DNA from: an uncultured virus (IMG/VR IMGVR_UViG_3300025759_000001)
Lineage: Duplodnaviria; Heunggongvirae; Uroviricota; Caudoviricetes; Crassvirales
Direction: 5' to 3' (one strand)
Virus record (IMG/VR): IMGVR_UViG_3300025759_000001
DNA length: 64,000 nucleotides
The translations under genes and the position numbers were made by a program. The notes beneath the pieces are model-generated. The model ran no database searches and was not told where the DNA came from. It was given only the letters and a program-made list of their open reading frames with translations. Positions 17,283-48,959 of the stretch are shown here, piece by piece. How positions within the stretch are numbered: the first letter of the stretch is position 1; each line of letters opens with the position of its first letter.

Positions 17283-17330
17283 CGAAAATACGGAATGAAA
17301 TCACTATATTCTAGTACGCATTATAGCTAA
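17283..17330 (-). promoter_or_regulatory. Bipartite late promoter candidate for the scaffold-MCP operon
   Basis: TTAGCTATAATG, then 28 nt, then TATTTTCG on the minus strand; same architecture at three other sites. Confidence 0.55.
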
Positions 17331-17337
17331 AATGTAA

Positions 17338-17964
17338 CTATTTAAATATAGTAAAAGACTTTTTAAAGCCAACATACTTGTTTCCTTGCGTATCTATACC
17401 TCCTGACCATATATCTCCACCTTGTCCTTGAAATCCTAAATCAAGCTTTAGCGCTGGCGTACCAGATCCTATTGGTGGTAATACTGCCTCTAATCCAAGT
17501 AGAACAGTCATCTTAGGTCTTATATGCATTACCTCTGGTGTATACGTAAATTCCTTATCTTTTATATTGTAATCAATCTTATATGCTAATAGAGTTCCTC
17601 TAGTCTTAGCATATAGGTCAACCTTAATAGTATCATTGTCAATTGCAATCTCATTATACTCTTTAATTCTAATAGACTCTAAGAATAGATTCTTAGCAGT
17701 TAAATCATCATTGTCTTCAATAGCTCTCTCATAAGCTTCCTTATACGAGTTATCAACTACTATTTCTTTCTTTCCAGGCAAGTACACTTTAACCTCTTTT
17801 ATAACCTCAACAGTATCTATTTGTACTAATCCTGAGGTTCCTGAGGAACCTGGAATAGTAATTGTAATAGGATCTGGAATAACTTCAGGCCTAGTATGTA
17901 GGTAGATCATTACTCCTGAAAACACTAAAAGTATTAGTATTGTGTAGTTCTTGATTTTATCCAT
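17338..17964 (-). CDS. Membrane-anchored protein, possible spanin-like lysis accessory
   Basis: N-terminal TM helix, DTVEVIKEVKVY, amphipathic beta C-terminus ending in aromatic residues. Confidence 0.45.
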   Translation of the reverse strand: MDKIKNYTILILLVFSGVMIYLHTRPEVIPDPITITIPGSSGTSGLVQIDTVEVIKEVKVYLPGKKEIVVDNSYKEAYERAIEDNDDLTAKNLFLESIRIKEYNEIAIDNDTIKVDLYAKTRGTLLAYKIDYNIKDKEFTYTPEVMHIRPKMTVLLGLEAVLPPIGSGTPALKLDLGFQGQGGDIWSGGIDTQGNKYVGFKKSFTIFK

Positions 17965-19832
17965 TATAATTTTAAATTTGCTTGCTCTGCATTATCACTT
18001 GCTTTCTTACCGTAAGCTAATGATTCATCTTTTTCTGCTGTCGTCCAAACTGTACTTCCACCTCCAGAAGAAAGATTGCTAACTACAGTAGTTCCTACAC
18101 TGTTATCTGTCAATACTCCGTTACCATCTATTGTGAAGCCACCTGCTGTACAAGAAGCTGCTAATTCTAATCTTGCACCTATAATGTGCAATTGGTCATC
18201 TTCAATGTCTGTTTTGTTTGTTAACAAAATATTACCTGTACAATCTCTTAAAGATAAACCCTTCCCATTTGCATTGAGTGTTATCTGTGGATCGTCTGGA
18301 GCAATAAAGCTACAGTTATCAAACAGTGTTCCTGCACCTGTACTCTTTTGTATTATTCCTGCACTGTTATTAATAATGCAATCTTTAATCCTTCCTTCTA
18401 CTTCTGTAAAGCCACCAAGACCTGTTGTTCCTAGTATACAGTTACTAATTCTAGACAGCCCATTAAGAGCCCCTGTCAAGATTAAATTCATGAAAGCAGA
18501 TTGATCTGTACTAGCTCCAGCTAACACCAATACATTTGAGCTACCTGTGCCTCCATGTATCATTGTTTTATCTAAATTGTGAGCTGCAGTTGCTGTAAAG
18601 AATCCTAGCATTTCAATTCCATGTAAACCATTATTAAGTTCAATTGCTAAAGCATCTGATAAATTGTTTACTGGGAATCCTTGAGTTCCTTTTGGGAATT
18701 CAGTTCCTGTTATTGTTGAAGTTGAATCTAGAAATACAAATCCATTTGTAAATAAAGTTCTGTTTAGATTTTTTGAATCTAACATCTCTTCATTAATGGT
18801 TGCACCTGCTGATTCATTTGTCAACTTACCAACACCTCTTAAGGTTATTGCACCTGCTGTTATGGTATTTGTTAACTTTACCTGCCCTGATATTAAATCT
18901 ACACTGACAGCTTCTGTTCCTGCCTTGTTAGTTAGTTCTATACCACCACTATAGTTTCTCATTATCAATCCAGATCCAGTTCCATTAAAATCAATTGTAG
19001 GGGTTTCTTCTCCTGCAAGTCCACTATAGCAATCAATTATATTTGTATTTCCTGATCCGTCAAGAGTTAAAGTTCCACCCAATATAGATTTCTCAATAAG
19101 TCCTGAAACTATTGATACGTCTAACAACTTACAGTGAGAAATAGTAGTAGATCCATCCATAGAACCCTGTAGTGTACAGTTACTAAAGGCAGAGTCAGCT
19201 ACATTGGCTCCAGGATTTACTGTCATAGTGCTAGATTCTTCGTGCTCTCCATGAATGTCAAAGTGGCTCATATCATCTCCAGTATCAAAAGTAATATCTC
19301 CAATAACATGAATACTCGTAATACCTCTAAACCCTGCTATCAACAATGCATCTGTAGTATTATTCACAGGTGCTTGTGCAGTTCCTTTTGGAAATGTTGT
19401 ACCAGTAATGCCAGAAGTGACATCAATTGTTACAGCTCCATTAAAAGATGAGTACTCAATTGCTGAATTAGATATAAGACCTGCAGCATTTGCAGACCTT
19501 ACTGATACTTGATTTACATTAACGTTGTCACCAACATTAGAGTTTGCACCAACCAAATTAACAGCATATTGTCCATCTTCAAAAGTTATAGTATAACCAT
19601 TTATTATTTCAAGTACTCTCGCATACACAATACCACCAAGTAATACTTCAGTGTTATGTGAGTGTGTATCTATAAATGCCATTCCCTCAATATCATCTTC
19701 TAGATCTTTTAGCTCCAGTCTAAATGAATTAAGATTCAGTTCTCTAACCTCAACAGGAACAGACTGTAATAAAGTCATGTCAGCTCTTGGTACGCTTATA
19801 ATTTTGTTAGCCCAATCTATTGTGGTAGCCAT
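17964..19832 (-). CDS. Structural protein with duplicated beta-helix-like region (tail spike/fibre)
   Basis: Internal duplication GTTFPKGTAQAPVNNTTDAL / GTEFPKGTQGFPVNNLSDAL. Confidence 0.55.
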   Translation of the reverse strand: MATTIDWANKIISVPRADMTLLQSVPVEVRELNLNSFRLELKDLEDDIEGMAFIDTHSHNTEVLLGGIVYARVLEIINGYTITFEDGQYAVNLVGANSNVGDNVNVNQVSVRSANAAGLISNSAIEYSSFNGAVTIDVTSGITGTTFPKGTAQAPVNNTTDALLIAGFRGITSIHVIGDITFDTGDDMSHFDIHGEHEESSTMTVNPGANVADSAFSNCTLQGSMDGSTTISHCKLLDVSIVSGLIEKSILGGTLTLDGSGNTNIIDCYSGLAGEETPTIDFNGTGSGLIMRNYSGGIELTNKAGTEAVSVDLISGQVKLTNTITAGAITLRGVGKLTNESAGATINEEMLDSKNLNRTLFTNGFVFLDSTSTITGTEFPKGTQGFPVNNLSDALAIELNNGLHGIEMLGFFTATAAHNLDKTMIHGGTGSSNVLVLAGASTDQSAFMNLILTGALNGLSRISNCILGTTGLGGFTEVEGRIKDCIINNSAGIIQKSTGAGTLFDNCSFIAPDDPQITLNANGKGLSLRDCTGNILLTNKTDIEDDQLHIIGARLELAASCTAGGFTIDGNGVLTDNSVGTTVVSNLSSGGGSTVWTTAEKDESLAYGKKASDNAEQANLKL

Positions 19833-19841
19833 ATATCTTTA

Positions 19842-21638
19842 TTATTCGTCACTCAAAAGAGTGATAGTTAAGTCTAAACCTGTATCCTTATTTATTGTTC
19901 CAACAATAGCCCCAGTCTTATAGTAAGGAGATGCAGAAGATTTTCTAACATTCCCTCCAATTGGTTGATTTGTTGCAAATGTCTTAGACCCTTGAACTAC
20001 ACCTAACACATCTGTTAGTGCACTAATAAGAACATAAGTTGATGTTATAGCTCCTGTTGCTGGAGTAGTGGGAGAACCAGCTACTGTATAATCATAAGTG
20101 TTTGTTGTAACATTTGAAACTGTATGTATTCCATAATATTCACTTTGATCAACTGACCTTATTACTACTTTATCTCCATTTGCTAATCCATGAGCAGTGT
20201 GAGTTACTGTTGCTACAGTACCAACTCTTGCTATTGTTACAGACGCTTGAAAGAACAAAGGACCTCCAGCTGCTACTGGAAAGAATACTCTTGCATCTTG
20301 TATCACTGCACCTTCTGTGTCTTGTACTGTTATTTTATATGTTACTGCTCCTGCCACAACATTAACTACTGCTCCTGCTGATCTTATTGATGGTACTGAT
20401 GCACCTGCTGTTACATTTATAGTTAAAGTTCCTGAAGCTACGTTTACGTATATTGCTTCATTTCCTGTTGAGGTTGCAGTAACTGGTGATGCTGCTACTC
20501 CAGCTACATATCCAGACAATTGATTGTCCCAATCTAATGATCCTCCACCAATGCTGGTTATTTCTACAGCATGATTAGATCCGTCTGATACAAAGCTATT
20601 TCCTGTTACTAACAACATGTTGTCAGCAAGTAAAGAAGTTGTAGCTGTACTATTTGTAAAAGTAGAGCTAGTTATAGATGAGCCTGATTGAGTAACTAAG
20701 TTGCATCTTCTAAAAACAGTCCCTACAACTGTTGTGTTAGAAAGAAAACTAAAGTCTAACATGTCGTTAAAAGTGCAGTCAGTTATTTCTACTGTGGCAT
20801 TATCAGTTACTGTAAACAAACCTCTAGTAGTAGCTCCCAGTGCAGATATTTGAATACCTGTCCACTTTACTGTTGACCCTGCGTTTAGTACTTCATATTC
20901 TGTAAATCCTGCAGCACAATGAATATTATCTTCTAAAACTATACTTTGATTACTATCCTCAAAGTAAGCTAATGATGCAACTGTTCCAATTTGAAATAAA
21001 CCTTTATGTGAAAAACCACCTGCAGATACTTCAAACAATCCCCATTTATTAGCTACTAAATCATTTTGAGTTGCTGCTCCTAGAAAAGTTCCTGGGTTAG
21101 CAATTTCTCCATCATCTACTATTATACTTCTTCCATATCTTGAATAATCAATAGCGAATGGATTACCTTTACTTACTGATGAAGTCATAAAAGTTCTTGA
21201 GCCAAAAGTGCTGGTAACTGACGTTGGACTTCCTTGTGTTAAATCCGGAGTGCTTGTTGGATCTACTGCAGAACTATACCACCCTCCTTTTGGAAGAGTG
21301 TCTCTACCATAAATAGTAAATTGGTTATAATTGGCAGATGAGTTTCCTATACATATTCTCATACCATCATTAACAAATGTATCTACCGTTGGCATTGCTC
21401 CGTGATAAGTCCATGAAAAAACAGCAGCACCTGCTGGTATTGTAACTGTATTTGACGGATGAGCTATCGACACATTACCTCCAGTACGTGTTTGTGACGT
21501 TGCACAATTTGTACCAGCAATGTAGTTGTCTGGATCGTTATCAGTAATCCTACCTTCTAACGCACCCGTAAGCTCTACATGAGATCCTGTCATGAGGTTT
21601 ATTGTTGCTAAGTCTGTTGTATATGTAGGTACTGCCAT
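19842..21638 (-). CDS. Structural protein (tail appendage)
   Basis: 598 aa, T/S/G-rich, beta-helix-like centre, TVTHTAHGLANGDKV repeat-type motif. Confidence 0.55.
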   Translation of the reverse strand: MAVPTYTTDLATINLMTGSHVELTGALEGRITDNDPDNYIAGTNCATSQTRTGGNVSIAHPSNTVTIPAGAAVFSWTYHGAMPTVDTFVNDGMRICIGNSSANYNQFTIYGRDTLPKGGWYSSAVDPTSTPDLTQGSPTSVTSTFGSRTFMTSSVSKGNPFAIDYSRYGRSIIVDDGEIANPGTFLGAATQNDLVANKWGLFEVSAGGFSHKGLFQIGTVASLAYFEDSNQSIVLEDNIHCAAGFTEYEVLNAGSTVKWTGIQISALGATTRGLFTVTDNATVEITDCTFNDMLDFSFLSNTTVVGTVFRRCNLVTQSGSSITSSTFTNSTATTSLLADNMLLVTGNSFVSDGSNHAVEITSIGGGSLDWDNQLSGYVAGVAASPVTATSTGNEAIYVNVASGTLTINVTAGASVPSIRSAGAVVNVVAGAVTYKITVQDTEGAVIQDARVFFPVAAGGPLFFQASVTIARVGTVATVTHTAHGLANGDKVVIRSVDQSEYYGIHTVSNVTTNTYDYTVAGSPTTPATGAITSTYVLISALTDVLGVVQGSKTFATNQPIGGNVRKSSASPYYKTGAIVGTINKDTGLDLTITLLSDE

Positions 21639-21658
21639 TCTATCCTATTTTTTAGTTA

Positions 21659-21684
21659 TACCGCCCCAAACGAATGGGACGGTA
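21659..21684 (-). terminator. Stem-loop / probable terminator
   Basis: TACCGTCCCA-TTCGTT-TGGGGCGGTA inverted repeat just after the 21705 stop; no clear T-run. Confidence 0.5.
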
Positions 21685-21704
21685 TGATTGTTTATTTATT
21701 ACTA

Positions 21705-23417
21705 TTAAAAGTCATCAATACGACCAACAGTAGAGGCACCACCACCTGATCCAACCGCTGCAGTTGTTTCAAATGTCTTAATCTCAACACCTGGATTAGC
21801 GTTTCTTACTCTAGTAAATAATGTTCTTGGAGCATTATATACATAAGTAACACTTTCAGTTGTTCCAGTTGCTACTCTATCAATATAGGTAACGAATCCG
21901 TTACCACCAATTGCCAAACCTGCACCTACACCAGAAAAATCTAATGCTGTGAAGTTTATCGTATCATCTGTAATAGAAGTAGTTGTAATACTTGTATAAG
22001 CTATTCTTCTATAACTTCCATTAACTTGCTCTACACGAACAGTACCTCCTGGTCTTGGAGTGTCTGAAGTTATTGTTTCATCAAAAACTATTGACGTTAC
22101 TGATGCTCCAACTTCTGCATTGGTTATAGACAATTGAGTTAAATCAAAGTCTCCTCCTGAGTTATTAGATGTTATAACATAATCTCCTGCAACAGTATTA
22201 TTTACAGAGTAACTAATGTTGTTTGGAGGAGTTCTGTTAGTTCCAGTTAAATCTTCAAGAAGATCATTCTGAGTTAAATCATCTGAACCAATACCAACAC
22301 CATAAGCTGCTGGATTAATAGCAGTACCAGTAGATGTTCCTACAAATGTAGCTGGTACAAGTCTAGGTGTTATGGTAACATTCATTGTTGCTGTTGCAGT
22401 CGAAACTCCTGTTATCACTTGACCATCTGTTGGAACAACACCCGAAAGTAATTGAATCCACATTTGAGTACCTGCTGTTACAGAATCAATTGCCAACAAT
22501 TGTCCAGTACCACCCGTCCATGATAAAGCTTCTGGCTCTACAAATGTTCCAGTTGGACTGTCTATTTCAATCTGGTGAGTAATACCTCTAAAGATATCAC
22601 CATCAAGACCATATATAGTTTCTGCTGAACCTTCACGTTGAATCCATTTACCTCTTTCATAGAAGTTATTCTTAGTTCTTGAACCAAGTTCCCAATCAGA
22701 GTAGTAAAATTCATTTACAGTATTACCATCAGCATCAATTGCAGAATAACCTTCTTTGTCATTTACAATATCAGTCCAAGTAGCAATAGTACCTTCTGCA
22801 GTCTGGTTGTTCCCATCCGTGTTGGCAGTAAGTGCTAATGTGTTGTTACCTCTGTTTGTTCCACCACCAATAGAGAATTCTGTATAAGCTGTTCCTAATA
22901 CTCTCTGAGTACCAATTAACCTACGTCCATCTATATCAGCACCACCTGTTCTTACTTTAACTAAGAATCTGTGAGTTGTAGAAGATAATGCATCTGATAC
23001 AGCAGCTTTCATTTTAACCTCATTCCAGAAATCATTAACTAATCTTGCTCCATCTTGTAGTACTTGAATACTAGATGAGTTACCAAACGTCTGAATACCA
23101 TCATAGATAGTATTACCCGCGTCTTGAGTTAATGATCCATCGTAGATGTACTCTACTGATGCGTCATCTAAATTACATCCGTTTAATAACGTGATGTTTG
23201 TATCTGCACCACCCCTATCGGACGGTGTTTTGTTGATGATGGATAATTCATCATCTCCGGAATCTTGCTCTTGATCAGCAAAATCTCCCAAAGCTCTGTG
23301 GAGCTCAATTGTTGTGGCGTATGAAGGGGAGGCTCCAGCGTGTGTATCGCCAATATAGCGAACATCCAGTGCTCCTCCGTTCCTTGTAATACTCCAATCT
23401 AATGCTACGAATGCCAT
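21705..23417 (-). CDS. Structural protein
   Basis: 570 aa, T/G/D-rich beta protein in the fibre cluster. Confidence 0.55.
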   Translation of the reverse strand: MAFVALDWSITRNGGALDVRYIGDTHAGASPSYATTIELHRALGDFADQEQDSGDDELSIINKTPSDRGGADTNITLLNGCNLDDASVEYIYDGSLTQDAGNTIYDGIQTFGNSSSIQVLQDGARLVNDFWNEVKMKAAVSDALSSTTHRFLVKVRTGGADIDGRRLIGTQRVLGTAYTEFSIGGGTNRGNNTLALTANTDGNNQTAEGTIATWTDIVNDKEGYSAIDADGNTVNEFYYSDWELGSRTKNNFYERGKWIQREGSAETIYGLDGDIFRGITHQIEIDSPTGTFVEPEALSWTGGTGQLLAIDSVTAGTQMWIQLLSGVVPTDGQVITGVSTATATMNVTITPRLVPATFVGTSTGTAINPAAYGVGIGSDDLTQNDLLEDLTGTNRTPPNNISYSVNNTVAGDYVITSNNSGGDFDLTQLSITNAEVGASVTSIVFDETITSDTPRPGGTVRVEQVNGSYRRIAYTSITTTSITDDTINFTALDFSGVGAGLAIGGNGFVTYIDRVATGTTESVTYVYNAPRTLFTRVRNANPGVEIKTFETTAAVGSGGGASTVGRIDDF

Positions 23418-23468
23418 AATTGTTTCTTTGTTTAATTAATTATTTATATATATATATCTAAAGTACAA

Positions 23469-24365
23469 CTATATGTACGTCAAACTAAATCTATTTGTCC
23501 AATCTGTTTCTAGATCAGTCAATCCTGTTGCGTAAGCAACAACTCCGTCAGTACATCTTTTAATTGTAATAACTGAGTTTAATAAGTATCCACTATAAAC
23601 AGTGGTAACTTCTACATCACTTCTGTAACTTGTTACAGAATTAGGTATTAAATAACCAGCATCATTTGTTAATGCTGATATATTATCAGAAGGTTGTAAA
23701 TAAACTTCATCATTAAACAGCTGAGAGATATCATCTCCTGGTTGTAATGCAGTATTAGCCAATATGCCTTGTGCATTAGTAGCGTAATCACTATCACTGA
23801 AATCAGTTATATCAATCTTAAGATGAGTATGTCCAATCTCAGACTTGCTTGATAATGCATTTGTTACAGCAGTACTGACAGGTTTGTTTAGGTCAGATGT
23901 ATTATCTACATTTCCTAATCCAACATCATTTTTGTCTACCTGATGTGGATTTGCTATATTGTTTATATGGCCATTAATTAAAGCTGTATTTGCAGCTATT
24001 AGGTCATCATATATTTCTAATTGTTGGTCAACAAGCTCTCTACTATGCTTCCACGCTCCTGCGGTATATATGTACCATCCTGATGGATAATAAGTCCCTC
24101 CTAATGATCCAGGAAGCCATTGAGTACCCTGGCTATATAAAACAAAAGCAATTGATTCTTCATCAACTCCTGATGGTAAGTCTGAATAAAAGTCAACAAC
24201 AAGATTTGCTCCAGAAAGAGCGTTAGAATTTATTAATTTAGGAACGCCATTTACGTCGTAAATATATATTTTCTTAGTATCTACCGCAACATATATTGAA
24301 CCAGGTATTGACCTACCGTCTTTCTCCTCATCTTTTCCGGTAAATTGATTTTGCGTTAATTTCAT
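23469..24365 (-). CDS. Tail-fibre-like protein
   Basis: HINNIANPHQVDKNDVGLGNVDNTSDLNKPVSTA and GHTHLKIDITDF fibre motifs. Confidence 0.7.
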   Translation of the reverse strand: MKLTQNQFTGKDEEKDGRSIPGSIYVAVDTKKIYIYDVNGVPKLINSNALSGANLVVDFYSDLPSGVDEESIAFVLYSQGTQWLPGSLGGTYYPSGWYIYTAGAWKHSRELVDQQLEIYDDLIAANTALINGHINNIANPHQVDKNDVGLGNVDNTSDLNKPVSTAVTNALSSKSEIGHTHLKIDITDFSDSDYATNAQGILANTALQPGDDISQLFNDEVYLQPSDNISALTNDAGYLIPNSVTSYRSDVEVTTVYSGYLLNSVITIKRCTDGVVAYATGLTDLETDWTNRFSLTYI

Positions 24366-24366
24366 T

Positions 24367-24840
24367 TTATACTATCTCAAAATGAGGCATATCATCTAAA
24401 TTTTGATCAAATATTATAATTCCATCAGAATCCCAATTTCCTCCCCATCTAACTTTATGTGTTATTTCTCCTTTATTAAATAATTCTTGTGAACATGAAT
24501 CTATTAAGCCAGCTATGTAGCTTAAATGCATACCATCATAAGATATTTTCTTTCTTGTAGCCTTATCAGCATGATATACGTATATATCTATTGCTTGTGA
24601 AGGTTGATAATTATGTTTACCCTTCTTAATTATCCCATCTACATTTGTAATAGTACTTCTGTGTAATTGAACAGTCCTGCCTATTGCATAATAAGCCTGT
24701 TGTTTAGATACATCTCTATGACCCTCAGATACACCAAAGTCAACTTTACTTCTTGATATAACTAGGTTAAATACCTTTTGTATATCAGGATGACAAGTTG
24801 CTAATCTCTTTGCGCTATTTGATCCAAATTTATATCTCAT
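24367..24840 (-). CDS. Endolysin, M15 family L-Ala-D-Glu peptidase
   Basis: SEGHR, GKHN...AIDI, RWGGNW, DMPHFE; likely start MRYKFG at 24840. Confidence 0.88.
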   Translation of the reverse strand: MRYKFGSNSAKRLATCHPDIQKVFNLVISRSKVDFGVSEGHRDVSKQQAYYAIGRTVQLHRSTITNVDGIIKKGKHNYQPSQAIDIYVYHADKATRKKISYDGMHLSYIAGLIDSCSQELFNKGEITHKVRWGGNWDSDGIIIFDQNLDDMPHFEIV

Positions 24841-24844
24841 CTTT

Positions 24845-25396
24845 TTAGTCTTCAAAATCATGTTGAACATCATGGTCAACATTAACAACAGATTCTTCAT
24901 TTTCTTTTATTCCAAGCAGTTTCTTTATTGGGGCAGGAAGCAAAAACGTTATTCTCTTCAGAATATTATTTCCACTAACTGCTTCCATATTTTCAAATAT
25001 GGAATATATCTCAACTAACGTTGCAGTCACTACTGCTAATTCAGTTAAAGTAAGACTTATTCCTTGAATTGAAAATGGATCTAACTTAAGTACCATACTT
25101 TCAAATACAGCAAATACTATGACGCCAACGCCATACTCATATGTCTTGCGCCAAGTATCTCTCATTCCCTTAGAATGAACAGTTTTCCAGAAGTGAGATT
25201 TAAATGGATTAAAACTAAGTTTTTTTTCGTGTAAGCTTTTTCTGATTCCAGTAACCATATCTATAATGATAAGGATACCAAGACCTATTAGCATTGGTTT
25301 TGTATTTAGCAAGACAGTGAGGATTGGGGTTAACGTTAGTAATAATGCTTTTTTCTCTAAAGTCATTTTGCCAAAAAATAAAGATATTGATTTCAT
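24845..25396 (-). CDS. Holin
   Basis: Multiple TM helices, IDMVTG...SKGMR...EIYSIFEN holin signature; adjacent to the endolysin. Confidence 0.8.
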   Translation of the reverse strand: MKSISLFFGKMTLEKKALLLTLTPILTVLLNTKPMLIGLGILIIIDMVTGIRKSLHEKKLSFNPFKSHFWKTVHSKGMRDTWRKTYEYGVGVIVFAVFESMVLKLDPFSIQGISLTLTELAVVTATLVEIYSIFENMEAVSGNNILKRITFLLPAPIKKLLGIKENEESVVNVDHDVQHDFED

Positions 25397-25422
25397 TGTT
25401 TTATTTTAGGACTTGTAATATG

Positions 25423-25470
25423 TAAAAATACAAAACACAAGTCCATTTATTTAATTCACATTATGGCTAT
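25423..25470 (-). promoter_or_regulatory. Bipartite late promoter candidate for the lysis genes
   Basis: TAGCCATAATG, 28 nt, TATTTTTA on the minus strand; a second TATCTTTG lies at 25535-25542. Confidence 0.55.
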
Positions 25471-25552
25471 AATGTAATATTACACTATGGATATACTCTT
25501 ATTTCAATAATGGATGAAAGTAATCCTGTTTATACAAAGATAGGTATATTAT

Positions 25553-26347
25553 TTAACTCTTGACTAGTTCAATAACCCAAAAGTCAAGGTCTTCCAAAGC
25601 ACCACCTATTACTGCCCCCATGAGTTCGCTCCCACCGGGTATTATAGTAATTTCTCTTACCCAAACCTCAACGGAGCCTATTACAGTACCGCTGCCTTGT
25701 TGTACTACTTGAGTTCCCGATGAGGACAGAACTCCATAGTTGCTCCCTCCAAATTTTAACGCTACATTACCTAATGCTGTATATGTTACCGGAACAGTAA
25801 CGGTATCTGCTACCGCAAACGCGTGAACGTTATTACTCACATCGGTGGTACAATTAGCTATTGTTAAACCACCTATAGCTAGGCTAGTTGCTGTAAGTGT
25901 TACAGTAATAGTTCTATTACCCGTTGTTGTTAGATTTGTTGTGTACCATACGTTACCGTTAGTGCCTCCGCTTAGTTTAGTCCATGTTGCACCTGATGAA
26001 TCAGACACGGTTACAGTGCCAATGCCGGCCGAGTAGTCATCACTATCAACATTTAATTGTAAAAAAGCTACAACATCTAGCGATGTAATATTGTATACAA
26101 CTGTTTTTGATGTTGTTGTAGTGTAACCAACTACGGTTCTAACGTAAGGGGTTGGGGTTGCTCCATAATTTCTAAAATTTAAAAGATTATTGTTCGTCCC
26201 GTCTACATTTGGATTGTAGTTAGAATCAAAGCTTCCTGCTATAGCGTCAGCAAAACAGGAAACTAAATTCCTGCCTACAGCTGTATCTCCATATAATTCT
26301 GTAGTTACATCGTGAAATGTAAATGTTGTTGTGTCTGGCACTGCCAT
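25553..26347 (-). CDS. Putative fibre-tip adhesin
   Basis: N-terminal MAVPDTTTFTFHDV...NLLNFRNY adaptor-like domain followed by a beta-rich domain; downstream of the S74-chaperone fibre. Confidence 0.55.
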   Translation of the reverse strand: MAVPDTTTFTFHDVTTELYGDTAVGRNLVSCFADAIAGSFDSNYNPNVDGTNNNLLNFRNYGATPTPYVRTVVGYTTTTSKTVVYNITSLDVVAFLQLNVDSDDYSAGIGTVTVSDSSGATWTKLSGGTNGNVWYTTNLTTTGNRTITVTLTATSLAIGGLTIANCTTDVSNNVHAFAVADTVTVPVTYTALGNVALKFGGSNYGVLSSSGTQVVQQGSGTVIGSVEVWVREITIIPGGSELMGAVIGGALEDLDFWVIELVKS

Positions 26348-26607
26348 TATCTTATGTAGCTACGTATTAATATAAATACCATTGGTGCTATTGTAAATAT
26401 AACATCCAATACTGAGAACCTTCCTTTTGGTTGAGTATAGTCACGAACCTCAATGGCTATCGCTAGGATAGTCATTAATATCATTGCATCCCAAAGTCTT
26501 ATTCTTGGAATCATTGTGATTGCATTAGCTATTAGACTTCCATAAAAGAAGTGGTTTAACTTATCGTTTGGTACTAGTTTTGCTAATTTTAATTTTAGTT
26601 CTTTCAT
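26347..26607 (-). CDS. Small membrane protein (VanZ-like motif)
   Basis: DKLNHFFYG...E..D...D pattern with three hydrophobic segments. Confidence 0.5.
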   Translation of the reverse strand: MKELKLKLAKLVPNDKLNHFFYGSLIANAITMIPRIRLWDAMILMTILAIAIEVRDYTQPKGRFSVLDVIFTIAPMVFILIRSYIR

Positions 26608-26616
26608 AATTTTCCA

Positions 26617-29622: not shown

Positions 29623-29625
29623 ATC

Positions 29626-31587: not shown

Positions 31588-31596
31588 AACTTGCTT

Positions 31597-33180: not shown

Positions 33181-33192
33181 GTTTTATTGTTT

Positions 33193-36367: not shown

Positions 36368-37105
36368 TTATCCTACGAATATTCCTGATGTATCAGCTAA
36401 TTCGAATGTGAATCCTTGTAAATCACCATCTGTATCTGTTAAGTCTGGAACATATGTTAGTAATCCTAAATCTACATCTGACATGTCTATTACCTCATTA
36501 ATAGCAACTTCTAATGCTGAAATATATATAGTTCCTAGTGTCGGAACTCCAGTTATCCTTAAAAATAAAGCTGGGTCACCTTCAGGATCATTATACGCTG
36601 GAATAGTACCTGAAGTAAACATCGCGCTAGTAAATGTTAACGTCTCACCATAAGAAATAGTAGCCGAACCTGTTCCAACAGAATCTGGAGGTAGGTTAGC
36701 TATTTGAGCAGCAACAATAATTGTTACACTTCCTGTAAAAGAGCTAAATGTAGAGGAACCATCATCAGATGATGTATAAGTAAAAGATGAACCATACCCA
36801 TCTGTATCTGCAGGGTCAGCTTGATATTCAAGATTACCTGATGTTAATTGAGCTGAAGTTATCACATCATTTGCTATAACCGCAACAGAACTTAGTGTTA
36901 ATGTGCCAACTGCTGGTAACGTAAGTATCTTAATACTCTCAAGTGAATCTCCATCAGGATCTGAAAATATAGGACTAGCTAGTGTTGTATAGTCAGCTAG
37001 CGTAAATGGGTATAATTCATTATACGCTATGCTTATAGCTACAACTCCTGGTTTATTAGGAGGCTGATTAGCCTCCGCAGCTATTGCTAATGTTATTATT
37101 CCCAT
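36368..37105 (-). CDS. Structural protein with two cadherin/Ig-like repeats (paralog of 9453..10199)
   Basis: FSDPDGD and YNDPEGD repeats; directly after the portal. Confidence 0.7.
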   Translation of the reverse strand: MGIITLAIAAEANQPPNKPGVVAISIAYNELYPFTLADYTTLASPIFSDPDGDSLESIKILTLPAVGTLTLSSVAVIANDVITSAQLTSGNLEYQADPADTDGYGSSFTYTSSDDGSSTFSSFTGSVTIIVAAQIANLPPDSVGTGSATISYGETLTFTSAMFTSGTIPAYNDPEGDPALFLRITGVPTLGTIYISALEVAINEVIDMSDVDLGLLTYVPDLTDTDGDLQGFTFELADTSGIFVG

Positions 37106-39525
37106 TATTTAGATGTTGAAGGAGCAGGTTTATTTGCTACCTTATTCTTAATTGCTATTTCTTTATCTTTACGAGCCATCTGATCTCTATGCTTAGTCAT
37201 GTCGTTAGATAATCCTTTCTCTTTGATCCCTAACTCAGCTTTAAATTTCTCATAGTCTGCATCATCAGTATTGTTGCCCTCTGGCATATCTATACCAGCT
37301 TCCTCATTATCAATTTTGATACGATCTGTCTCAGCTTTTAACTCAGCAATATATCTTTTAGTCTCGTCTTCTTTATCAAACTCATAAGCAGCTCTTTCTT
37401 CATCTCTTTGCTCTTTAGCAGCTTGTTGCTCCATTAAAGCCTGAGCTTGTTTTTGTTCAGCTTCACCTTGAGCAGCTTGATTCTCTTTCATAGCTTTCTC
37501 ATCTTTCTCAATCATTCGTTGAACTTCACGTAATGAAGGTGAGTTGTACATTTTCATAGCAGCAGAGAATGTAATCATTTGGTTTTGTAAACCTAATTGA
37601 ATCATTCCATCTAATTTTTGTTGAATCTGGTTAATACCATCTTCATTAGATACTGCAAGACCATATTCTTCTTCAGCAAACTCATCACCATCAATCTCCA
37701 TGATCTGTCTAGTCATGTCGTCACCAATGTAAGAGAATTTTAATTCCTGACCCTTTAAAGCTATCTTAGCGGTTTCAATAAGTATTTGAAAACATCTCTT
37801 CTTGCAATAATCATGCAAAGTAAATAACTCTTCTGTGATGTGATTAGATTGAGACACCGCTCTCTCTATTCCACCCATAGTCTCTCTGTTCTCAGTTTGA
37901 CCAAGTCTTTGTCTTGAAACTCCAGTAATCTCGTCCATCTTAGCAGAAGCAAACTCCATCATCTCCATATGGACCTGAATGAAATCACCTATTCTTTGTT
38001 CAAGAACCTTACCAGTTGTATTTCCTACTGACCCAGCAAGTTTACCTTTTGCCATACCTTTCTGTCCTTCTTTGAAACTATCTACAACAGAAATACCTGA
38101 CTTACGTGCAAAGTATAACCATTTAGTAACATTCCAGCCAGTTGGTACTTTGGCTAAATCTAATTCAACAATAGACCCTAAGTATTTAGATAATGTTTCA
38201 TTCACCCTATACCATGATATATCAAACAGGTATTGGAATGGTTTGGCTCTATCTATCATAGATACTGCCTCTTGTTCGTTTGTATTATAAATCTGTCCAA
38301 CTATTCCACATGAATTGAATGAAGGCTCATTGATTTTATTATATTGTATTTCTCTAGGTTGGATCTTAACATAAGTATCTTTACCTACTTTAGCGCCTTT
38401 CCACCATTGTGTTACCCAGAATTTTTCTGAAGTCTCACCTTTATCTTTATCTAAAATATAATCCTCAGCTCTAAATTTAATCTGAGTTTTACCTAAGTCA
38501 TCAAAGTAAGTTACTTTTTGTATTTGCTTCATGGACTTCCAGAACATTCTAAGAACTCTAATATTTCCCGCGCCGTCTGTATAAGTGTTTCTTCCTTGAG
38601 ATCCACTTCCAGCGAATATTCCAGATGACTCTATGAAAGAATTTATTGTTTCCCTTTCATATATTTCCCATCCTTCTTTATCGTCAATTGCTAAATTTTC
38701 ACCATCTAAGTCTGTACCATCACCCCTGAATTCTCCGTTGTCTAACTTCTTAACGTCTTTTTCCTTAAGGTCTGCATAGAATGTATCTTGTATCTTTCCG
38801 GGGCTCCAGAAGTCATCTATTACAATAACATCAGCATCTTCTATCATATTAGAATAGCCAGATCTTAACGTATGTACTTTGAGTGGATTTAATTTTTCAA
38901 ATGTAACCTTTCCATTTACAATGTCAAACATGTAAATTTCCTCACCCATAATAAGTGCATCTTTAAAGCCTTGTTGAAATTTAATTTTCATTTCAAGCTT
39001 CTCAATATAACTACGCATTAAAAGATTAGCTCTCTTCTCGCGTAGATCCTGGTAGTCAAAGTTTATGTAATCACCATATGCCTGAAGTTCTTTATCCAAT
39101 TCTTCGTCAGATAGGTCAGATCCAATGAACTCTTTAATCTTTGCTTGGATTAAAGCCATCTTATCTGTTTTAATCTTAGATATAGTGTCTGGATTAGTTA
39201 TTTGAACTGTCCAATCAAACTTACGTCTTTTTTCCTCACCTACAAGTACATTTACTCGTGGTGCTACGATTGGGTAATGCTGTATGGCATCTGGAACAAA
39301 GTGTTGCTCTAAACCACCTGGGTTAAGAACTAACTTCATATCGCGTAAATCTACCTTACCATTGTATAGGTCTAGGTTTATTTTTTTGTTTTTAAATTTT
39401 CTACGTATAATAGTATTATTTAAGTGACTATTATGGTCTGCCCAGTCTAGGTGGGATTGTCTCCATTTTGGCCCCTTTTGCTTAAAGGACAATTTCTGTC
39501 TTGGAAAACTTTTATCTGTTGACAT
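37105..39525 (-). CDS. Portal protein
   Basis: 806 aa; FPRQKLSFKQK, IQHYPIVAPRVNVLVGEE, GVSRQRLG, ERAVSQSNHITE; directly downstream of TerL. Confidence 0.92.
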   Translation of the reverse strand: MSTDKSFPRQKLSFKQKGPKWRQSHLDWADHNSHLNNTIIRRKFKNKKINLDLYNGKVDLRDMKLVLNPGGLEQHFVPDAIQHYPIVAPRVNVLVGEEKRRKFDWTVQITNPDTISKIKTDKMALIQAKIKEFIGSDLSDEELDKELQAYGDYINFDYQDLREKRANLLMRSYIEKLEMKIKFQQGFKDALIMGEEIYMFDIVNGKVTFEKLNPLKVHTLRSGYSNMIEDADVIVIDDFWSPGKIQDTFYADLKEKDVKKLDNGEFRGDGTDLDGENLAIDDKEGWEIYERETINSFIESSGIFAGSGSQGRNTYTDGAGNIRVLRMFWKSMKQIQKVTYFDDLGKTQIKFRAEDYILDKDKGETSEKFWVTQWWKGAKVGKDTYVKIQPREIQYNKINEPSFNSCGIVGQIYNTNEQEAVSMIDRAKPFQYLFDISWYRVNETLSKYLGSIVELDLAKVPTGWNVTKWLYFARKSGISVVDSFKEGQKGMAKGKLAGSVGNTTGKVLEQRIGDFIQVHMEMMEFASAKMDEITGVSRQRLGQTENRETMGGIERAVSQSNHITEELFTLHDYCKKRCFQILIETAKIALKGQELKFSYIGDDMTRQIMEIDGDEFAEEEYGLAVSNEDGINQIQQKLDGMIQLGLQNQMITFSAAMKMYNSPSLREVQRMIEKDEKAMKENQAAQGEAEQKQAQALMEQQAAKEQRDEERAAYEFDKEDETKRYIAELKAETDRIKIDNEEAGIDMPEGNNTDDADYEKFKAELGIKEKGLSNDMTKHRDQMARKDKEIAIKNKVANKPAPSTSK

Positions 39526-39539: not shown

Positions 39540-39586
39540 TAAAAATAGTTCATTTTACTTTAATTATCATGCTATTATTATAGCTA
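39540..39586 (-). promoter_or_regulatory. Bipartite late promoter candidate for the portal operon
   Basis: TAGCTATAATA (overlapping the TerL stop), 28 nt, TATTTTTA. Confidence 0.55.
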
Positions 39587-42583: not shown

Positions 42584-42612
42584 AAAAAAAAGCCCTACTG
42601 TCAAGTAGAGCT
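42584..42612 (-). terminator. Rho-independent terminator
   Basis: AGCTCTAC-TTGACA-GTAGGGCT followed by a T-run. Confidence 0.7.
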
Positions 42613-42631
42613 ATCATCATCTTTTGTGATG

Positions 42632-42823
42632 TTATTTATTTTTCTTACTTCCAAAGAGGCTTTTCTCTACCTTTACCTCTGTTTTTTTTACCTTCTGAGG
42701 AACAATAACTATTGTATTTAATGAGTTAAAAAATTTCTCACCTTTTACAATTGCGCTTCTTACAACTATATCTTGAGGAAGTTCCTTTAAGATATCTAAT
42801 ACTTCTTTTACCTTGTCTTTCAT
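42632..42823 (-). CDS. Hypothetical basic protein
   Basis: 63-aa ORF coupled to the upstream gene. Confidence 0.5.
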   Translation of the reverse strand: MKDKVKEVLDILKELPQDIVVRSAIVKGEKFFNSLNTIVIVPQKVKKTEVKVEKSLFGSKKNK

Positions 42824-43383
42824 GTTTGCTTGTTTGAATTTATTATGTAATCTATGTCTCTCTCTGAGACTTTTATGTAATCTATATTGTTTATATTAAC
42901 TATTGGCATATCATAAGTGTAATTAGCTTTTACCCTATCCCTCATGTCTTCATCAACTCTTTTCTTGAAGTTCTCAATATTAATTTTAACCTCCATTCCT
43001 TTTTCAATTTGCTGACATTGTGGCCCTATTGCCATTACTTTTTGAGCAACTGAGAAGTCTTGTTCCAAATCTGTACTACCTTCAGCACCAAAAGATGCTG
43101 TCGGTAAGTATAGACCTGACTCGTTGGTTAGTTTGTTTCTTCTAGCTGTTAAAAACATTGTATTGAACATTGGCTCAATCCCAATTGGCAAAGGATGATC
43201 TTTAAGAGAATCTTTATACAATAACTCTTTAACCTCAGCTTCAGCTCCTAAAATTTCAGTAGCATTATCGACTAATCCCTTAGATCCTCTATTAATCTTA
43301 TCACGAGTAGTAAAAAATTCCTTATGTACTGCTTGTGACTCAGCTACTTGTTTTTGTATTTTAACATCCTTCTTAACATTCAT
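42820..43383 (-). CDS. GroES-like co-chaperonin with N-terminal extension
   Basis: IEPMFNTMFL, TNESGLYLP mobile-loop-like motif, KVMAIGP...IEKGMEV, YIKVSERDIDYII. Confidence 0.7.
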   Translation of the reverse strand: MNVKKDVKIQKQVAESQAVHKEFFTTRDKINRGSKGLVDNATEILGAEAEVKELLYKDSLKDHPLPIGIEPMFNTMFLTARRNKLTNESGLYLPTASFGAEGSTDLEQDFSVAQKVMAIGPQCQQIEKGMEVKINIENFKKRVDEDMRDRVKANYTYDMPIVNINNIDYIKVSERDIDYIINSNKQT

Positions 43384-43571: not shown

Positions 43572-43622
43572 AAAATTTGTTTTTAATTTATTTGTAAATA
43601 TAATAATTAATTTCTTTAATTC

Positions 43623-43889
43623 CTAATCTTTATTCTTTTTTTTATTTTCTTGTATCCTGTCGTATAGGAAGTAACTAGCATATAGTTTTCCTAATGCAGG
43701 AAATGTAAAGTTTGTTTTAAGCTCTTTAAACTCTTCGCGCGTTAAGTCATCAGGTATATTAAGATTCCTATTTGCAACTCTAACGAATTCAAATTGACTA
43801 TTCTTTATATCCCTAACTTCCTGCACTGTAAGTCCGTATTTCTCAGCTAATTCTTTTAACTTTAAAAGATCTGATTTATTTTCCCTCAT
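43623..43889 (-). CDS. HU/IHF-like small DNA-binding protein
   Basis: LKELAEKYGLTVQEV...SQFEFV...FPALGKLY. Confidence 0.6.
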   Translation of the reverse strand: MRENKSDLLKLKELAEKYGLTVQEVRDIKNSQFEFVRVANRNLNIPDDLTREEFKELKTNFTFPALGKLYASYFLYDRIQENKKKNKD

Positions 43890-44259
43890 CTATTTCAAAA
43901 TTGAATATCAATTTAAACCCATCTTCAGTCATGTTAGGTATCAATACTGGGTTAATAACATTTCCATTCATTATAACCCCCTTCTTTCTTAAAGAAGTTA
44001 ATAGATTGTTAAATACCTTTTGACTCATGCCTCCAAGATCATCTCTTATCTGGTTTCTAGTATCAGTAGCAAAGAGCAGCTTACTTACCAAGTCTTTATT
44101 ATTTACTTCTCTTGACAATTCATACCTGTAATACAATAGAAGCGCAAGTGCATCAATTTCCTTTTGTCTTAACTTATGATAAGGCTTAAGGAATTCTAGC
44201 CAGTATTTAAATATCTCCCTTTTTGAGGTCTTTATTCTTTTTACATTTATATTGTTCAT
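43876..44259 (-). CDS. Winged-helix protein (crAss RepL-like)
   Basis: LRQKEIDALALL...IRDDLGGMSQKVFNNLLTSLRKKGVI. Confidence 0.6.
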   Translation of the reverse strand: MNNINVKRIKTSKREIFKYWLEFLKPYHKLRQKEIDALALLLYYRYELSREVNNKDLVSKLLFATDTRNQIRDDLGGMSQKVFNNLLTSLRKKGVIMNGNVINPVLIPNMTEDGFKLIFNFEIDEGK

Positions 44260-44491
44260 TCATTTCTATTTGTATGCTCAAAGTAACTTCAGGACTGTCA
44301 TCAGTTCCAGAGTACTTCATAGATACAACGTACCTATTTTCTACCTTGTTAATTGCATTTATTACCTTGTATATTCTATCTGCCTTATCCTCCAAATACT
44401 CCATGTCTGTTGAGACATAATCATATTTTAATATTCCATCACTATCCCATTGGTTTAGTTCTATAAGCTCTTTCATGTTATTATTTTTCAT
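44207..44491 (-). CDS. Hypothetical protein
   Basis: 94-aa ORF within the operon. Confidence 0.5.
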   Translation of the reverse strand: MKNNNMKELIELNQWDSDGILKYDYVSTDMEYLEDKADRIYKVINAINKVENRYVVSMKYSGTDDSPEVTLSIQIEMNEQYKCKKNKDLKKGDI

Positions 44492-44849
44492 CTAAAAATT
44501 TCTTTCCATATCTTTCCTCATACATGTCTTCCCATTCAGTAATATGAGTATTATCTAAGTCTGTGTTACCACAATCCACACAGTAAGGCACAATGGCTTT
44601 ATCTTTACTGCTTATTGCTCCATCCTTGGGAAATGAAACTTCTTTAATGTGTAATTTTAAGCATGTCTTACAGTACGTTACTGGGACATTATTGTAATCT
44701 TGTTTTTTAGTTATCATATTTAATAATTTTAAATCATTTATAATGTCAGTATCGTATACTGGAAATGGTGCCATCATATTGGCGTGCTCTCTTCTTTTAA
44801 TTTCTTTGGTTAATTCTTTTTTATCCATAATTATAATTTTATAGCACAT
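44481..44849 (-). CDS. Zn-finger protein conserved in crAss-like phages
   Basis: YNNVPVTYCKTC...YCVDCG...EWEDMY. Confidence 0.65.
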   Translation of the reverse strand: MCYKIIIMDKKELTKEIKRREHANMMAPFPVYDTDIINDLKLLNMITKKQDYNNVPVTYCKTCLKLHIKEVSFPKDGAISSKDKAIVPYCVDCGNTDLDNTHITEWEDMYEERYGKKFLDEK

Positions 44850-46393: not shown

Positions 46394-46601
46394 CTTGTAT
46401 TCTATCTTCTAGTTCGTTAATTGATGAGACCTTTCCTTTTGAGGTCTCTTCATCGTTAATTTCAATTTTATATCTTCCGGTATTTAAGTTTATTGTTAGT
46501 TCTATTATATCTGTTTCATTAGATATATAGAATATACTATTTCCTCTCTTAATCTTATAAGGCATAAAGCCTAACTCTACTATCTCCTCTGCTGTTACCA
46601 T
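46380..46601 (-). CDS. Hypothetical protein
   Basis: 73-aa ORF overlapping both neighbours. Confidence 0.55.
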   Translation of the reverse strand: MVTAEEIVELGFMPYKIKRGNSIFYISNETDIIELTINLNTGRYKIEINDEETSKGKVSSINELEDRIQDGEY

Positions 46602-46813
46602 TTATCTACTGGGCATTTACAATCCTCACACTTAGTCTTAGCTGTCAATACACAACCACACTTTCTACATCTTCCTAGTTCAGTCTTAAACTCACAAGCT
46701 TGACATATAGCCATTCTGTTAGAGAATAACTTACTTTGTTTCTTAGTGAGTAATCCTAGCTTATCTTTAGCTAAGTTTCCATACCCATTTGCTATGTCAT
46801 CTAACTTAGACAT
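46595..46813 (-). CDS. Small Cys-rich protein
   Basis: RMAICQAC...CRKCGC...KCPVDKW. Confidence 0.7.
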   Translation of the reverse strand: MSKLDDIANGYGNLAKDKLGLLTKKQSKLFSNRMAICQACEFKTELGRCRKCGCVLTAKTKCEDCKCPVDKW

Positions 46814-47307: not shown

Positions 47308-47351
47308 TTACTAAAAGTACAAAATATAAATCACACTTCCTAATTAAAACT

Positions 47352-47380
47352 AAAAAATCCCCACATTTCTGTGAGGATCT
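47352..47380 (-). terminator. Rho-independent terminator
   Basis: ATCCTCACA-GAAA-TGTGGGGAT followed by a T-run. Confidence 0.75.
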
Positions 47381-47400
47381 TAATAATAGATTTAAACAAT

Positions 47401-47610
47401 TTATAGCTTGACACCCTTAACGTAGTCAACAATAGCTTTAAAATTCTTAAAAATGAATGCACCAATTAGACCTGCGCCTATATGTGGCCACCCCAATAGC
47501 GCCCATACTCCAACACCACCAGCTAATAGGCCTACGCCATAAAATCCTAGTCCTGTGAAGAAGTTCACTACAACATTAACAACATTTTTAATCTCATTTA
47601 CAATTTCCAT
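47401..47610 (-). CDS. Small Gly-rich membrane protein
   Basis: 69 aa with two hydrophobic GxxxG segments; lies between the structured element and the terminator. Confidence 0.65.
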   Translation of the reverse strand: MEIVNEIKNVVNVVVNFFTGLGFYGVGLLAGGVGVWALLGWPHIGAGLIGAFIFKNFKAIVDYVKGVKL

Positions 47611-47640
47611 AATATATATATATTCTAGTTTTAATTATTA

Positions 47641-47915
47641 GATAGAAAAATCCCTTGGACACGTTGGTATATCGTAACCTGGAGCAGTTTTCTTTACAAT
47701 TTCAATAGAGCAGTGTTACTTGTGCCCAGGACTGATAACATTTGTTAATTCAAAAGGATCCTACTTGTTCCGTATCCAGTCCAACTCTATTATTATATGT
47801 AAAAGGTTTCCAACGAGTTACTATCCTTTGAACCTCAGTTACACGCCTACGCCCTATAATATTCTTAACTTATTAGCTTTAGGCTGATGTAATTCTAACA
47901 CCAGATAGTTTTATT
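47641..47915 (-). ncRNA. Candidate highly structured ncRNA or 5' leader
   Basis: No long ORF; consensus TATGTTTG at 47920-47927 upstream; eight complementary segment pairs, some crossing (see findings). Confidence 0.5.
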
Positions 47916-47959
47916 TATGCAAACATACGATATAAAAACAGTAATTCCAAATATAAGTG

Positions 47960-48142: not shown

Positions 48143-48198
48143 TATTTTTCGTATATTTACTAAAGATACAAAATATAAATGTTAAAAACAATATAAAA

Positions 48199-48435
48199 AT
48201 GGATTTAGATAAAGAATTTAAAAAATTAAATTACGCATTAGATAGTTACGCGTGTAAGCATCATGCTGATTATGAGGAAAATGTAAATGAAGGAAGTGTT
48301 ACTCTTTTGCTATTGGACTCAGGAGAGATGCCAATACTGACCCACAAGGCTGTTTACGGAGAAAACTTTGAATCAGATATTACGGGCTTCAAAAAACAAG
48401 CGATTAAATTTTGTAGCCATGTCAAAGTTTCTTAA
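48199..48435 (+). CDS. Hypothetical protein
   Basis: 78 aa; A-rich leader; TATATTTA at 48152-48159. Confidence 0.55.
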   Translation: MDLDKEFKKLNYALDSYACKHHADYEENVNEGSVTLLLLDSGEMPILTHKAVYGENFESDITGFKKQAIKFCSHVKVS

Positions 48436-48631
48436 AAAGAAAGAATGTAAATTTGATCACACTAAATTTTATAGATTTGTTTACAATGAAATAAGCATAC
48501 TAGTTGAAAAGGAAGTGTTTAAAAAATTTGACTATGAAACAGATAAAGCTCTGATGTTTAGTGGGGGTTCCAAACCTAGTGAGAGTTATAGACTTGAGAT
48601 ATTCGACATAACAAAGCCTACTGAGAAGTAG
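48419..48631 (+). CDS. Hypothetical protein
   Basis: Likely start MSKFLK at 48419; followed by a terminator. Confidence 0.5.
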   Translation: MSKFLKKKECKFDHTKFYRFVYNEISILVEKEVFKKFDYETDKALMFSGGSKPSESYRLEIFDITKPTEK

Positions 48632-48639
48632 GCTTTTTT
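48613..48639 (+). terminator. Terminator between convergent genes (possibly bidirectional)
   Basis: AAAGCCTAC-TGAGAA-GTAGGCTTT plus a T-run. Confidence 0.7.
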
Positions 48640-48654
48640 AAGTTTAATTTCTTT

Positions 48655-48879
48655 CTAGAGATACTTAAAAAAACTGTAAATTGCAATGACTATTTGAGAA
48701 ATTTTTGAATGTGGGAAGAATTCTAAGAAGAATATTACATATAGTGGAAGAATTATGCGAATAATAAACATTAAATACCCAAGAGTCCTTGGAATGAACA
48801 TAATGTTGGTTGGGGTTGTCATTCCAAAGACTACAAAGGCAAATGTGCCTAGAACTTTAGAGAAATTTATTCTTTGCAT
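48655..48879 (-). CDS. Small membrane protein
   Basis: 74 aa, hydrophobic; preceded by the bipartite motif (48883-48929). Confidence 0.55.
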   Translation of the reverse strand: MQRINFSKVLGTFAFVVFGMTTPTNIMFIPRTLGYLMFIIRIILPLYVIFFLEFFPHSKISQIVIAIYSFFKYL

Positions 48880-48959
48880 AGGTAAAGATAACTATAAAAT
48901 AAAATAACTAGCTATGGCATTATAGCTAAAGAAGTTTTTTTGCTGTGGTTTTCCCGTAA

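Follow-up and report, generated by a model that had tools for sequence, protein, structure and literature searches.

How does a crAss-like phage switch on the genes for its capsid and for lysis, and does a DNA signal mark them? The question is raised by a 64,000-nucleotide (nt) stretch of uncultured viral DNA, IMG/VR record IMGVR_UViG_3300025759_000001 (the window, by which we always mean this whole stretch). At four intergenic sites the gene (minus) strand of the window reads TAGC(T/C)ATAAT, here called the box, followed after a gap of 29 nt (28 at site 4) by TAT(T/C)TT(TA/CG). Judged by sequence the window is a crAss-like phage of the order Crassvirales, and its capsid region has distant DNA matches exclusively to crAss-like phages. 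The four sites are best explained as the window's copies of a two-part promoter that is conserved in a clade of environmental crAss-like phages.

Is the pattern more than chance? The coordinates of the four two-part sites and their gaps (29, 29, 29 and 28 nt), as given in a preliminary description of this DNA, all proved correct when the window was re-read; a fifth exact copy of the box 10-mer (Table 1) had been missed there. Taken alone the 10-mer is borderline: 0.64 exact copies are expected and 4 are present, a number reached in 1 of 100 shuffles. The box at site 2 is a one-mismatch copy, and when one mismatch is allowed the 17 matches, against 13.8 expected, are not significant. A scan of the window for GC[CT]ATAA-N27-31-TA..TT returned exactly the four sites on the minus strand and one unrelated match, at 31583, on the plus strand. 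All boxes are intergenic, except for the first three bases of the box at site 3, which belong to the terminase stop codon. It is because the pattern is conserved in relatives that it lies far beyond chance.

Relatives were taken from IMG/VR as portal loci and as capsid loci with 10-kilobase flanks, and distances in them were counted from the end of ATAA to the TA of the downstream half, a -7 element considered below. Conservation in relatives, the touchstone that the preliminary description had set itself beforehand, was found throughout the closer portal loci: AGC(T/C/A)ATAA, the distance and TAnnTT are kept upstream of the portal gene in all 28 loci whose portal identity is 66% or more. The spacer between box and -7 element is rewritten even in relatives at 92% identity. 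No two-part element was found upstream of the portal gene in the 50 loci at or below 48% portal identity. A loose form of the pattern was counted in 62 capsid-gene loci, together 877,007 nt: there are 99 occurrences on the gene strand and 16 on the opposite one. Over 86 unique sites from portal and capsid loci together, the distance is 30 nt in 62, 31 nt in 15, 28 nt in 4, 29 nt in 4 and 32 nt in 1. When every distance between 5 and 70 nt downstream of 150 unique gene-strand boxes was examined for a -7 element, 42 boxes had one at 30 nt and 14 at 31 nt, with no more than 4 at any other distance; among the 75 opposite-strand boxes in the capsid loci, none has a -7 element at 28-31 nt. These counts bear out the initial account of a bipartite, strand-specific, promoter-associated element with fixed spacing, and we regard a functional DNA element associated with promoters as very probable.

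The consensus from relatives is ttTAGCTATAAt-N29-TAttTTtgta. The box itself reads tTTAGC(T/C/A)ATAA(t), its last A lying 30 nt ahead of TAnnTTTG, less often 31, and 29 at site 4, and the spacer is almost devoid of information save for weak A-rich positions near -28 and -18. The inverted repeats that had been noticed at sites 2 and 4 are present in the window, but relatives do not keep them. The box is not a dyad operator, because the TAGCTA core alone is symmetric and this is lost in relatives with AGC(A/C)ATAA; the variants AGCAATAA and AGCCATAA, as well as the flanks in relatives, are asymmetric. Separately, a conserved AGTAAATTTAGT block in crAss001-like portal loci was considered as an upstream promoter block and dropped, because there is one copy per genome, which reads as the end of the terminase coding sequence.

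What, then, is the downstream half? On sequence grounds it is the -7 element TAnnTTTG of the Bacteroidota sigma-A promoter, which is matched at the window sites (Table 1) and by the consensus of the relatives. The suggestion in the preliminary description that these elements are weak does not hold in general, since the relatives mostly have the full TAnnTTTG. In the text of Baez et al. (PMC6847099) the -7 element extends from T-12 to G-5 with the start of transcription 4-5 nt further on, and the promoters of Flavobacterium johnsoniae have a faint -33 element and A/T-rich motifs near -18 and -28. If the Flavobacterium numbering holds, with the -7 element at -12 to -5, the box comes to lie at about -53 to -43. 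The box promoters thus share with the Bacteroidota sigma-A promoter (-33 TTTG, -7 TAnnTTTG) the -7 element and the weak A-rich positions near -18 and -28, but carry the box as an extra invariant element and have no -33 TTG. A TTG placed about 17-21 nt upstream of the -7 element occurs in 9 of 77 box promoters, against 5 of 77 and 11 of 77 in control windows. The TATAAT of the box was also tried as a sigma-70-type -10 element and rejected: in consensus scans a -35-like hexamer 16-18 nt upstream is lacking at all five boxes.

The genes that follow the sites are largely those of virion assembly and lysis. The window has the gene layout of the cultured Cellulophaga phage phi14:2, with 47% identity in the capsid protein and 41% in the portal. 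On the minus strand, from 48879 down to 1, lie genes for GroEL-like, terminase, portal, tail-fibre, holin, endolysin, major capsid and crAss ring proteins; a replication block occupies the plus strand from near 49866. Intergenic stretches of at least 30 nt amount to only 5,318 of the 64,000 nt. That three of the sites head the portal, scaffold-like and major capsid, and holin-endolysin units, as first described, is supported by phrog and Pfam matches, and the regulon is alike in relatives. The major capsid gene in the site 1 unit matches phrog_11589 (E 5.3e-106), and the putative scaffold gene at 16158-17252 is a homolog of phi14:2 g092 (28% identity). Among 77 unique sites in relatives, the next gene is a homolog of 16158-17252 in 28, of the holin in 24 and of the portal in 18; the remainder precede a structural gene of phrog_22884 (3), homologs of 23469-24365 (2), a membrane open reading frame (ORF) of unknown function (1) and no ORF (1). 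Homologs of the window's late structural or lysis genes are thus preceded by 75 of the 77 sites, a proportion favoured by the choice of loci around portal and capsid genes; 'late' refers here to gene function and to the class of the capsid module in phi14:2. Two relatives serve below as points of reference: G002, complete at 98,436 nt and used as a stand-in for the whole genome of the window phage, and G003, with 66% portal identity. G002 has only the four orthologous promoters and the orphan fifth box. In G003 three late orthologous units bear the element, at 51-66% protein identity.

Table 1. Two-part sites, target genes and candidate binding protein in the window, with box-to-core distances in more distant relatives.
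Feature	Position	Strand	Remarks
Site 1 upstream box	17320..17329	-	TAGCTATAAT; before 364-residue gene preceding major capsid gene; orthologous sites in G002 and G003
Site 1 -7 element	17283..17290	-	TATTTTCG; 29 nt after 10-mer
Site 2 upstream box	25460..25469	-	TAGCCATAAT; before holin-endolysin; centre of 18-nt near-palindrome
Site 2 -7 element	25423..25430	-	TATTTTTA; 29 nt after 10-mer
Site 3 upstream box	39577..39586	-	TAGCTATAAT; before portal gene; TAG is the terminase stop codon
Site 3 -7 element	39540..39547	-	TATTTTTA; 29 nt after 10-mer
Site 4 upstream box	48919..48928	-	TAGCTATAAT; head of leftward gene block; kept in G002
Site 4 -7 element	48883..48890	-	TATCTTTA; 28 nt after 10-mer, 3 nt before ATG at 48879
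Orphan fifth box	51730..51739	-	TAGCTATAAT; no -7 partner; overlaps start codon of plus-strand ORF 51742-52440
Site 1 target unit	14632..17252	-	364-residue gene 16158-17252 and major capsid gene 14632-16131
Site 2 target unit	24367..25396	-	Holin 24845-25396 (PF05105, E 7.8e-07); endolysin 24367-24900 (phrog_465, E 2.7e-32)
Site 3 target, portal gene	37105..39525	-	phrog_6547, E 7.9e-123
Candidate box binder, predicted winged-helix, 127 residues	43876..44259	-	Proposed from conservation, structural model and annotation
L160			Box 10-mer to -7 element 30 nt
L153 (the same genome as G006)			Box 10-mer to -7 element 32 nt
L162-L164 and L166			Box 10-mer to -7 element 44-47 nt
L165			Box 10-mer to -7 element 55 and 58 nt

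At site 4 (48879), and at 56304 in G002, the first gene of the leftward block begins 3 nt past the -7 element, so that either the mRNA would lack a leader or translation in fact begins at a codon further inside the gene. The arrangement at phi14:2 g110 is similar, with 4 nt from the -7 element to the start.

How might such a promoter work? A box-bound protein in contact with RNA polymerase fits best, because the link between box and core is strict and strand-specific. From the sequence and its conservation we infer late promoters of the host RNA polymerase that would depend on a phage protein bound at the box. The host sigma-A polymerase would use the -7 element. A phage protein made earlier in infection, most likely the 'VpsT-like' winged-helix protein of Table 1, would bind the box and, from that fixed position, would recruit or stabilise the polymerase. 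Late in infection the portal, capsid and lysis genes would thereby be switched on. Directly visible in the sequences are the motif with its strand specificity and fixed spacing, its conservation and the genes it precedes; where transcription starts, that it is late, that an activator is needed and which protein binds are inferences from these.

Activator-dependent promoters are well known in other phages, examples being the T4 middle promoters (MotA box with AsiA), the P2/P4 late promoters (Ogr/Delta) and the Mu late promoters (C). The general form, in which a conserved element specific to late genes stands ahead of the core at a set distance, is what we find here. The likeness to the T4, P2/P4 and Mu systems lies in the conserved upstream element, its fixed distance to a host-type core and its place ahead of late morphogenesis and lysis genes; the differences lie in the sequence of the box, in its position, here centred near -48, and in the host phylum, and no significant homology to MotA, Ogr or C was found. 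On balance we lean towards a phage-encoded activator as the reader of the box, a view that draws on sequence comparison.

Would a host factor serve as well? The IMG/VR database was scanned for exact matches to TTAGCTATAA-N30/31-TAnnTTTG, and among the 133 matches listed there are 83 at N30 and 50 at N31; in those matches the surplus at N30 consists of crAss-type promoter contexts, and the N31 matches resemble chance occurrences in coding DNA. A scan of bacterial genomes, one per prokaryotic species and with the exact 10-mer required, gave 65 at N30 and 55 at N31 among the 120 matches listed. Two of these 65 are crAss-like contigs binned into metagenome-assembled genomes and the rest are not. 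Among the matches listed there is no sign of the box in bacterial genomes, and it appears phage-specific. Reading by the host machinery alone, either as an UP-like element for the alpha subunit or through a borrowed host factor, is attractive in that UP elements are positioned around -53 to -43, where the box lies, and in that the centre of the box near -48 extends the 10-nt series -7, -18, -28 described for F. johnsoniae in the text of PMC6847099. We nevertheless consider it improbable: the box has an invariant G and C within its A/T-rich sequence, unlike UP elements, the canonical promoters of these genomes lack the box, and among the matches listed the bacterial scan has no excess at 30 nt (65 against 55, two of the 65 being phage contigs).

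The cultured phage phi14:2 offers a useful comparison. In its 100,000 nt the sequence ACGCTATTAAAA occurs exactly twice, upstream of the portal gene g093 and of g092, each copy 58 nt before TATATTTGTA. An identical 15-mer, TAAACGCTATTAAAA, stands at 36787-36799 and 39244-39256 on the minus strand of this genome (L090), 58 nt before TATATTTGTA at the g092 and g093 promoters. Both promoters retain a TTG at -33. Compared with the window's box, TAAACGCTATTAAAA is likewise found ahead of the portal gene and the g092 homolog, has the GCTAT core and keeps an equal distance at its two sites; it differs in that the distance is 58 nt and not 30, and in the presence of the -33 TTG. The g092/g093 capsid module is assigned to the late class by Drobysheva et al. 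(10.1101/2020.03.07.982082), a preprint that describes middle promoters and whose text gives no late-specific signal or motif, TAAACGCTATTAAAA included.

Are the box promoters simply the middle promoters of that study under another form? A -7-type block, TAnnTTTGTA, stands upstream of phi14:2 g070, g075, g108 and g110, which the text of the preprint (10.1101/2020.03.07.982082) identifies by primer extension as middle promoters of the bacterial RNA polymerase. It also reports putative promoters before portal and gp092 homologs. The phi14:2 middle promoters and the 'extended tripartite' motif of genus VI, as worded there, share with the box promoters the phage order, the leftward structural block, a -7-type TAnnTTTG(TA) block and an inferred use of host RNA polymerase. 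The middle promoters differ in having a TTG -33-type block and an A-tract, and no TAGCTATAA box; in the box promoters the TTG is not above background and the -10-like block is present. We caution that the tripartite motif was compared by its text, and that its third block may partly overlap the box.

These data also bear on whether the box could be the recognition element of the phage's own mid-infection RNA polymerase, with the -7 element a separate host promoter. In their text Shkoporov et al. (PMC8375218) speculate that late genes might be a target of phage polymerase subunits, and the sensitivity of late genes to rifampicin could be indirect. Against this, the text of 10.1101/2020.03.07.982082 has both middle and late phi14:2 genes transcribed by the host polymerase, and a strict link of 30/31 nt to the -7 element, with weak A-rich positions near -18 and -28, would be unexpected for two independent promoters. 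We judge a phage polymerase at the box to be quite improbable.

A third possibility is that the box acts in RNA, as a processing site or as a boxA/nut-like antitermination signal in transcripts that read through gene ends. The box always lies just past the upstream stop codon and would be transcribed by read-through, in several distant relatives a terminator hairpin directly follows it, and the phi14:2 version, CGCTATTAAAA, bears what we take to be a loose resemblance to boxA. A signal in RNA would leave the constant distance to a promoter element in DNA without explanation. Nor is there common folding: of the five sites site 2 alone is much more stably folded than its shuffles, over a 96-nt region (z -4.47, against -1.36 to +0.12 elsewhere), and its palindrome is not conserved in relatives. 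The chances of an RNA signal therefore seem to us poor. At site 2 we note that a 9-bp inverted repeat (GGACTTGTG ... CACAAGTCC on the gene strand; 25409-25417 and 25436-25444) flanks the -7 element of the holin-endolysin promoter; it could provide extra control over lysis timing, as an operator or as a hairpin in the 5' leader.

Very unlikely is a box that binds protein for another purpose, as a roadblock or insulator between units or as a repressor site that also shuts off early genes. In its favour, boxes mark unit boundaries, and the orphan box, which G002 retains, overlaps the ATG of a gene read rightward. Against it, the box lies 28-29 nt upstream of the core promoter and does not overlap it, and the strand specificity and constant spacing speak for an activation geometry. 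The orphan box itself, found in G002 at 59153 ahead of an ORF without detectable homology, may serve to shut an early gene off.

If a phage activator binds the box, which protein is it? The winged-helix candidate at 43876-44259 is the most conserved small protein of the box-bearing genomes (95% identity in G002, 58% in G003 and 67% in the further relative G005) and the sole small protein detectable in phi14:2 (g098, 34%). Its AlphaFold2 (AF2) model has a predicted local distance difference test score (pLDDT) of 90.7. The best VIA-align matches are winged-helix domains at Z 5.5-6.9, for example 4pta_D (Z 6.9, root-mean-square deviation 4.7, 97 residues aligned), and include weak matches to MotA (6k4y_M, Z 6.4; 1bja, Z 5.5). 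In 54 phage records there are homologs, for the most part under the annotation 'VpsT-like putative transcriptional regulator'; the literature searched yielded nothing relevant on VpsT-like regulators in crAss phages or on late promoters. From sequence and model, this protein is a possible but tentative choice for the box binder. Other conserved candidates are a zinc-ribbon protein (44481-44849), a Cys-rich DUF6171 protein (46595-46813) and the products of 42820-43383 and 43623-43889.

The preliminary description had named three binders, and the winged-helix protein is the one that remains plausible. The 'HU-like' protein at 43623-43889 has no Pfam match at E values up to 1, 11 homologs and an all-helical AF2 model whose confidence (pLDDT 64) is too low for a structural search, and the designation is without support. 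The IHF-like homolog of the window is instead the 188-residue ORF at 6883-7449, which is 36% identical to phi14:2 g073, annotated 'IHF subunit'; it lies between two tail ring-protein genes and its Pfam search matched zero families. The DnaA-C-like protein at 54877-55431 scores exactly at the Pfam cutoff, and no homolog is detectable in G003, a box-bearing relative.

How far does the box extend in the order? In more distant relatives the box is followed by a -7 element at the distances given in Table 1. One more box-like sequence, AGCTATAAA at 47401-47408 of the window, has a terminator hairpin behind it (47354-47381) and then, 48 nt away, TAGTTTTA, a layout resembling the distal arrangement of distant relatives; it was considered as a further site and is taken as chance, because it is not kept in G002. 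A bolder proposal is that a single box (core GC-AT, TTTAGCnATA) is the late-gene signal of a whole branch of Crassvirales, read by the conserved 'VpsT-like' winged-helix protein as the middle-to-late switch at distances specific to each clade. This we consider doubtful. If true, one activator would act at 30/31 nt without a -33 element, at 44-47 or 55-58 nt, and in phi14:2 at 58 nt with a -33 TTG, the same protein being shifted between proximal and distal contact with the host RNA polymerase.

Several observations weigh against activation by a box-bound phage protein as we have set it out. The distant clades keep the box at changed and looser distances (32, 44-47 and 55-58 nt, with 58 nt in phi14:2), which are not all in helical phase with 30 and fit poorly with one rigid geometry, and three of their promoters carry a terminator hairpin between box and -7 element. 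The orphan box has no -7 partner. The counterpart of the site 4 promoter in phi14:2, P110, is 'middle', and so the promoter class may not be strictly late. The missing -33 TTG supports activator dependence only weakly, the -33 element being faint in F. johnsoniae as well (text of PMC6847099). The bacterial scan, with an exact 10-mer and 120 matches listed, gives an absence of sign and not proof. As to the candidate protein, its structural matches all lie below Z 8, a range the tool calls common, a Foldseek search against the Protein Data Bank gave nothing at E 0.001 or better, and Pfam gave nothing. The sole RNA run found is a freshwater metatranscriptome holding 5% of the sampled words; against 14000-33999 it provided contigs of a relative only, 1 of 20 pieces at 95-99% identity and the rest lower, and no transcript ends.

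Some other features of the window deserve mention. Long non-coding stretches lie at or near the divergence of the two gene blocks (48880-49865, 47611-47959 and 48143-48654), with several -7-type elements and terminator-like hairpins; no Rfam family was found in them. Intergenic RNAs with high transcription are described for the early region of phi14:2 in the text of 10.1101/2020.03.07.982082. A tRNA gene at 55504-55579 (Rfam tRNA, 40.7 bits) has an enlarged anticodon loop, to which ARAGORN assigns the four-base anticodon ctta, and could be a suppressor-type tRNA of the kind seen in crAss-like phages. The late genes of the window are open under the standard code.

Is the element new, and what would it mean? 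The preliminary description knew of no account of the motif, and none was found in the literature searched, in which 10.1101/2020.03.07.982082 was compared by its text. What appears to be novel is a putative activator-type late promoter in a phage order and a host phylum where, by our analysis, none seems to have been described. The box probably marks the middle-to-late switch of transcription in these crAss-like phages. It provides a concrete cis-element, a short list of regulator candidates and a counterpart in a cultured model phage. It would be a rare activator-type promoter architecture in the Bacteroidota, whose promoters differ from the Escherichia coli model, and the box could aid the annotation of late operons in metagenomic crAss-like genomes.

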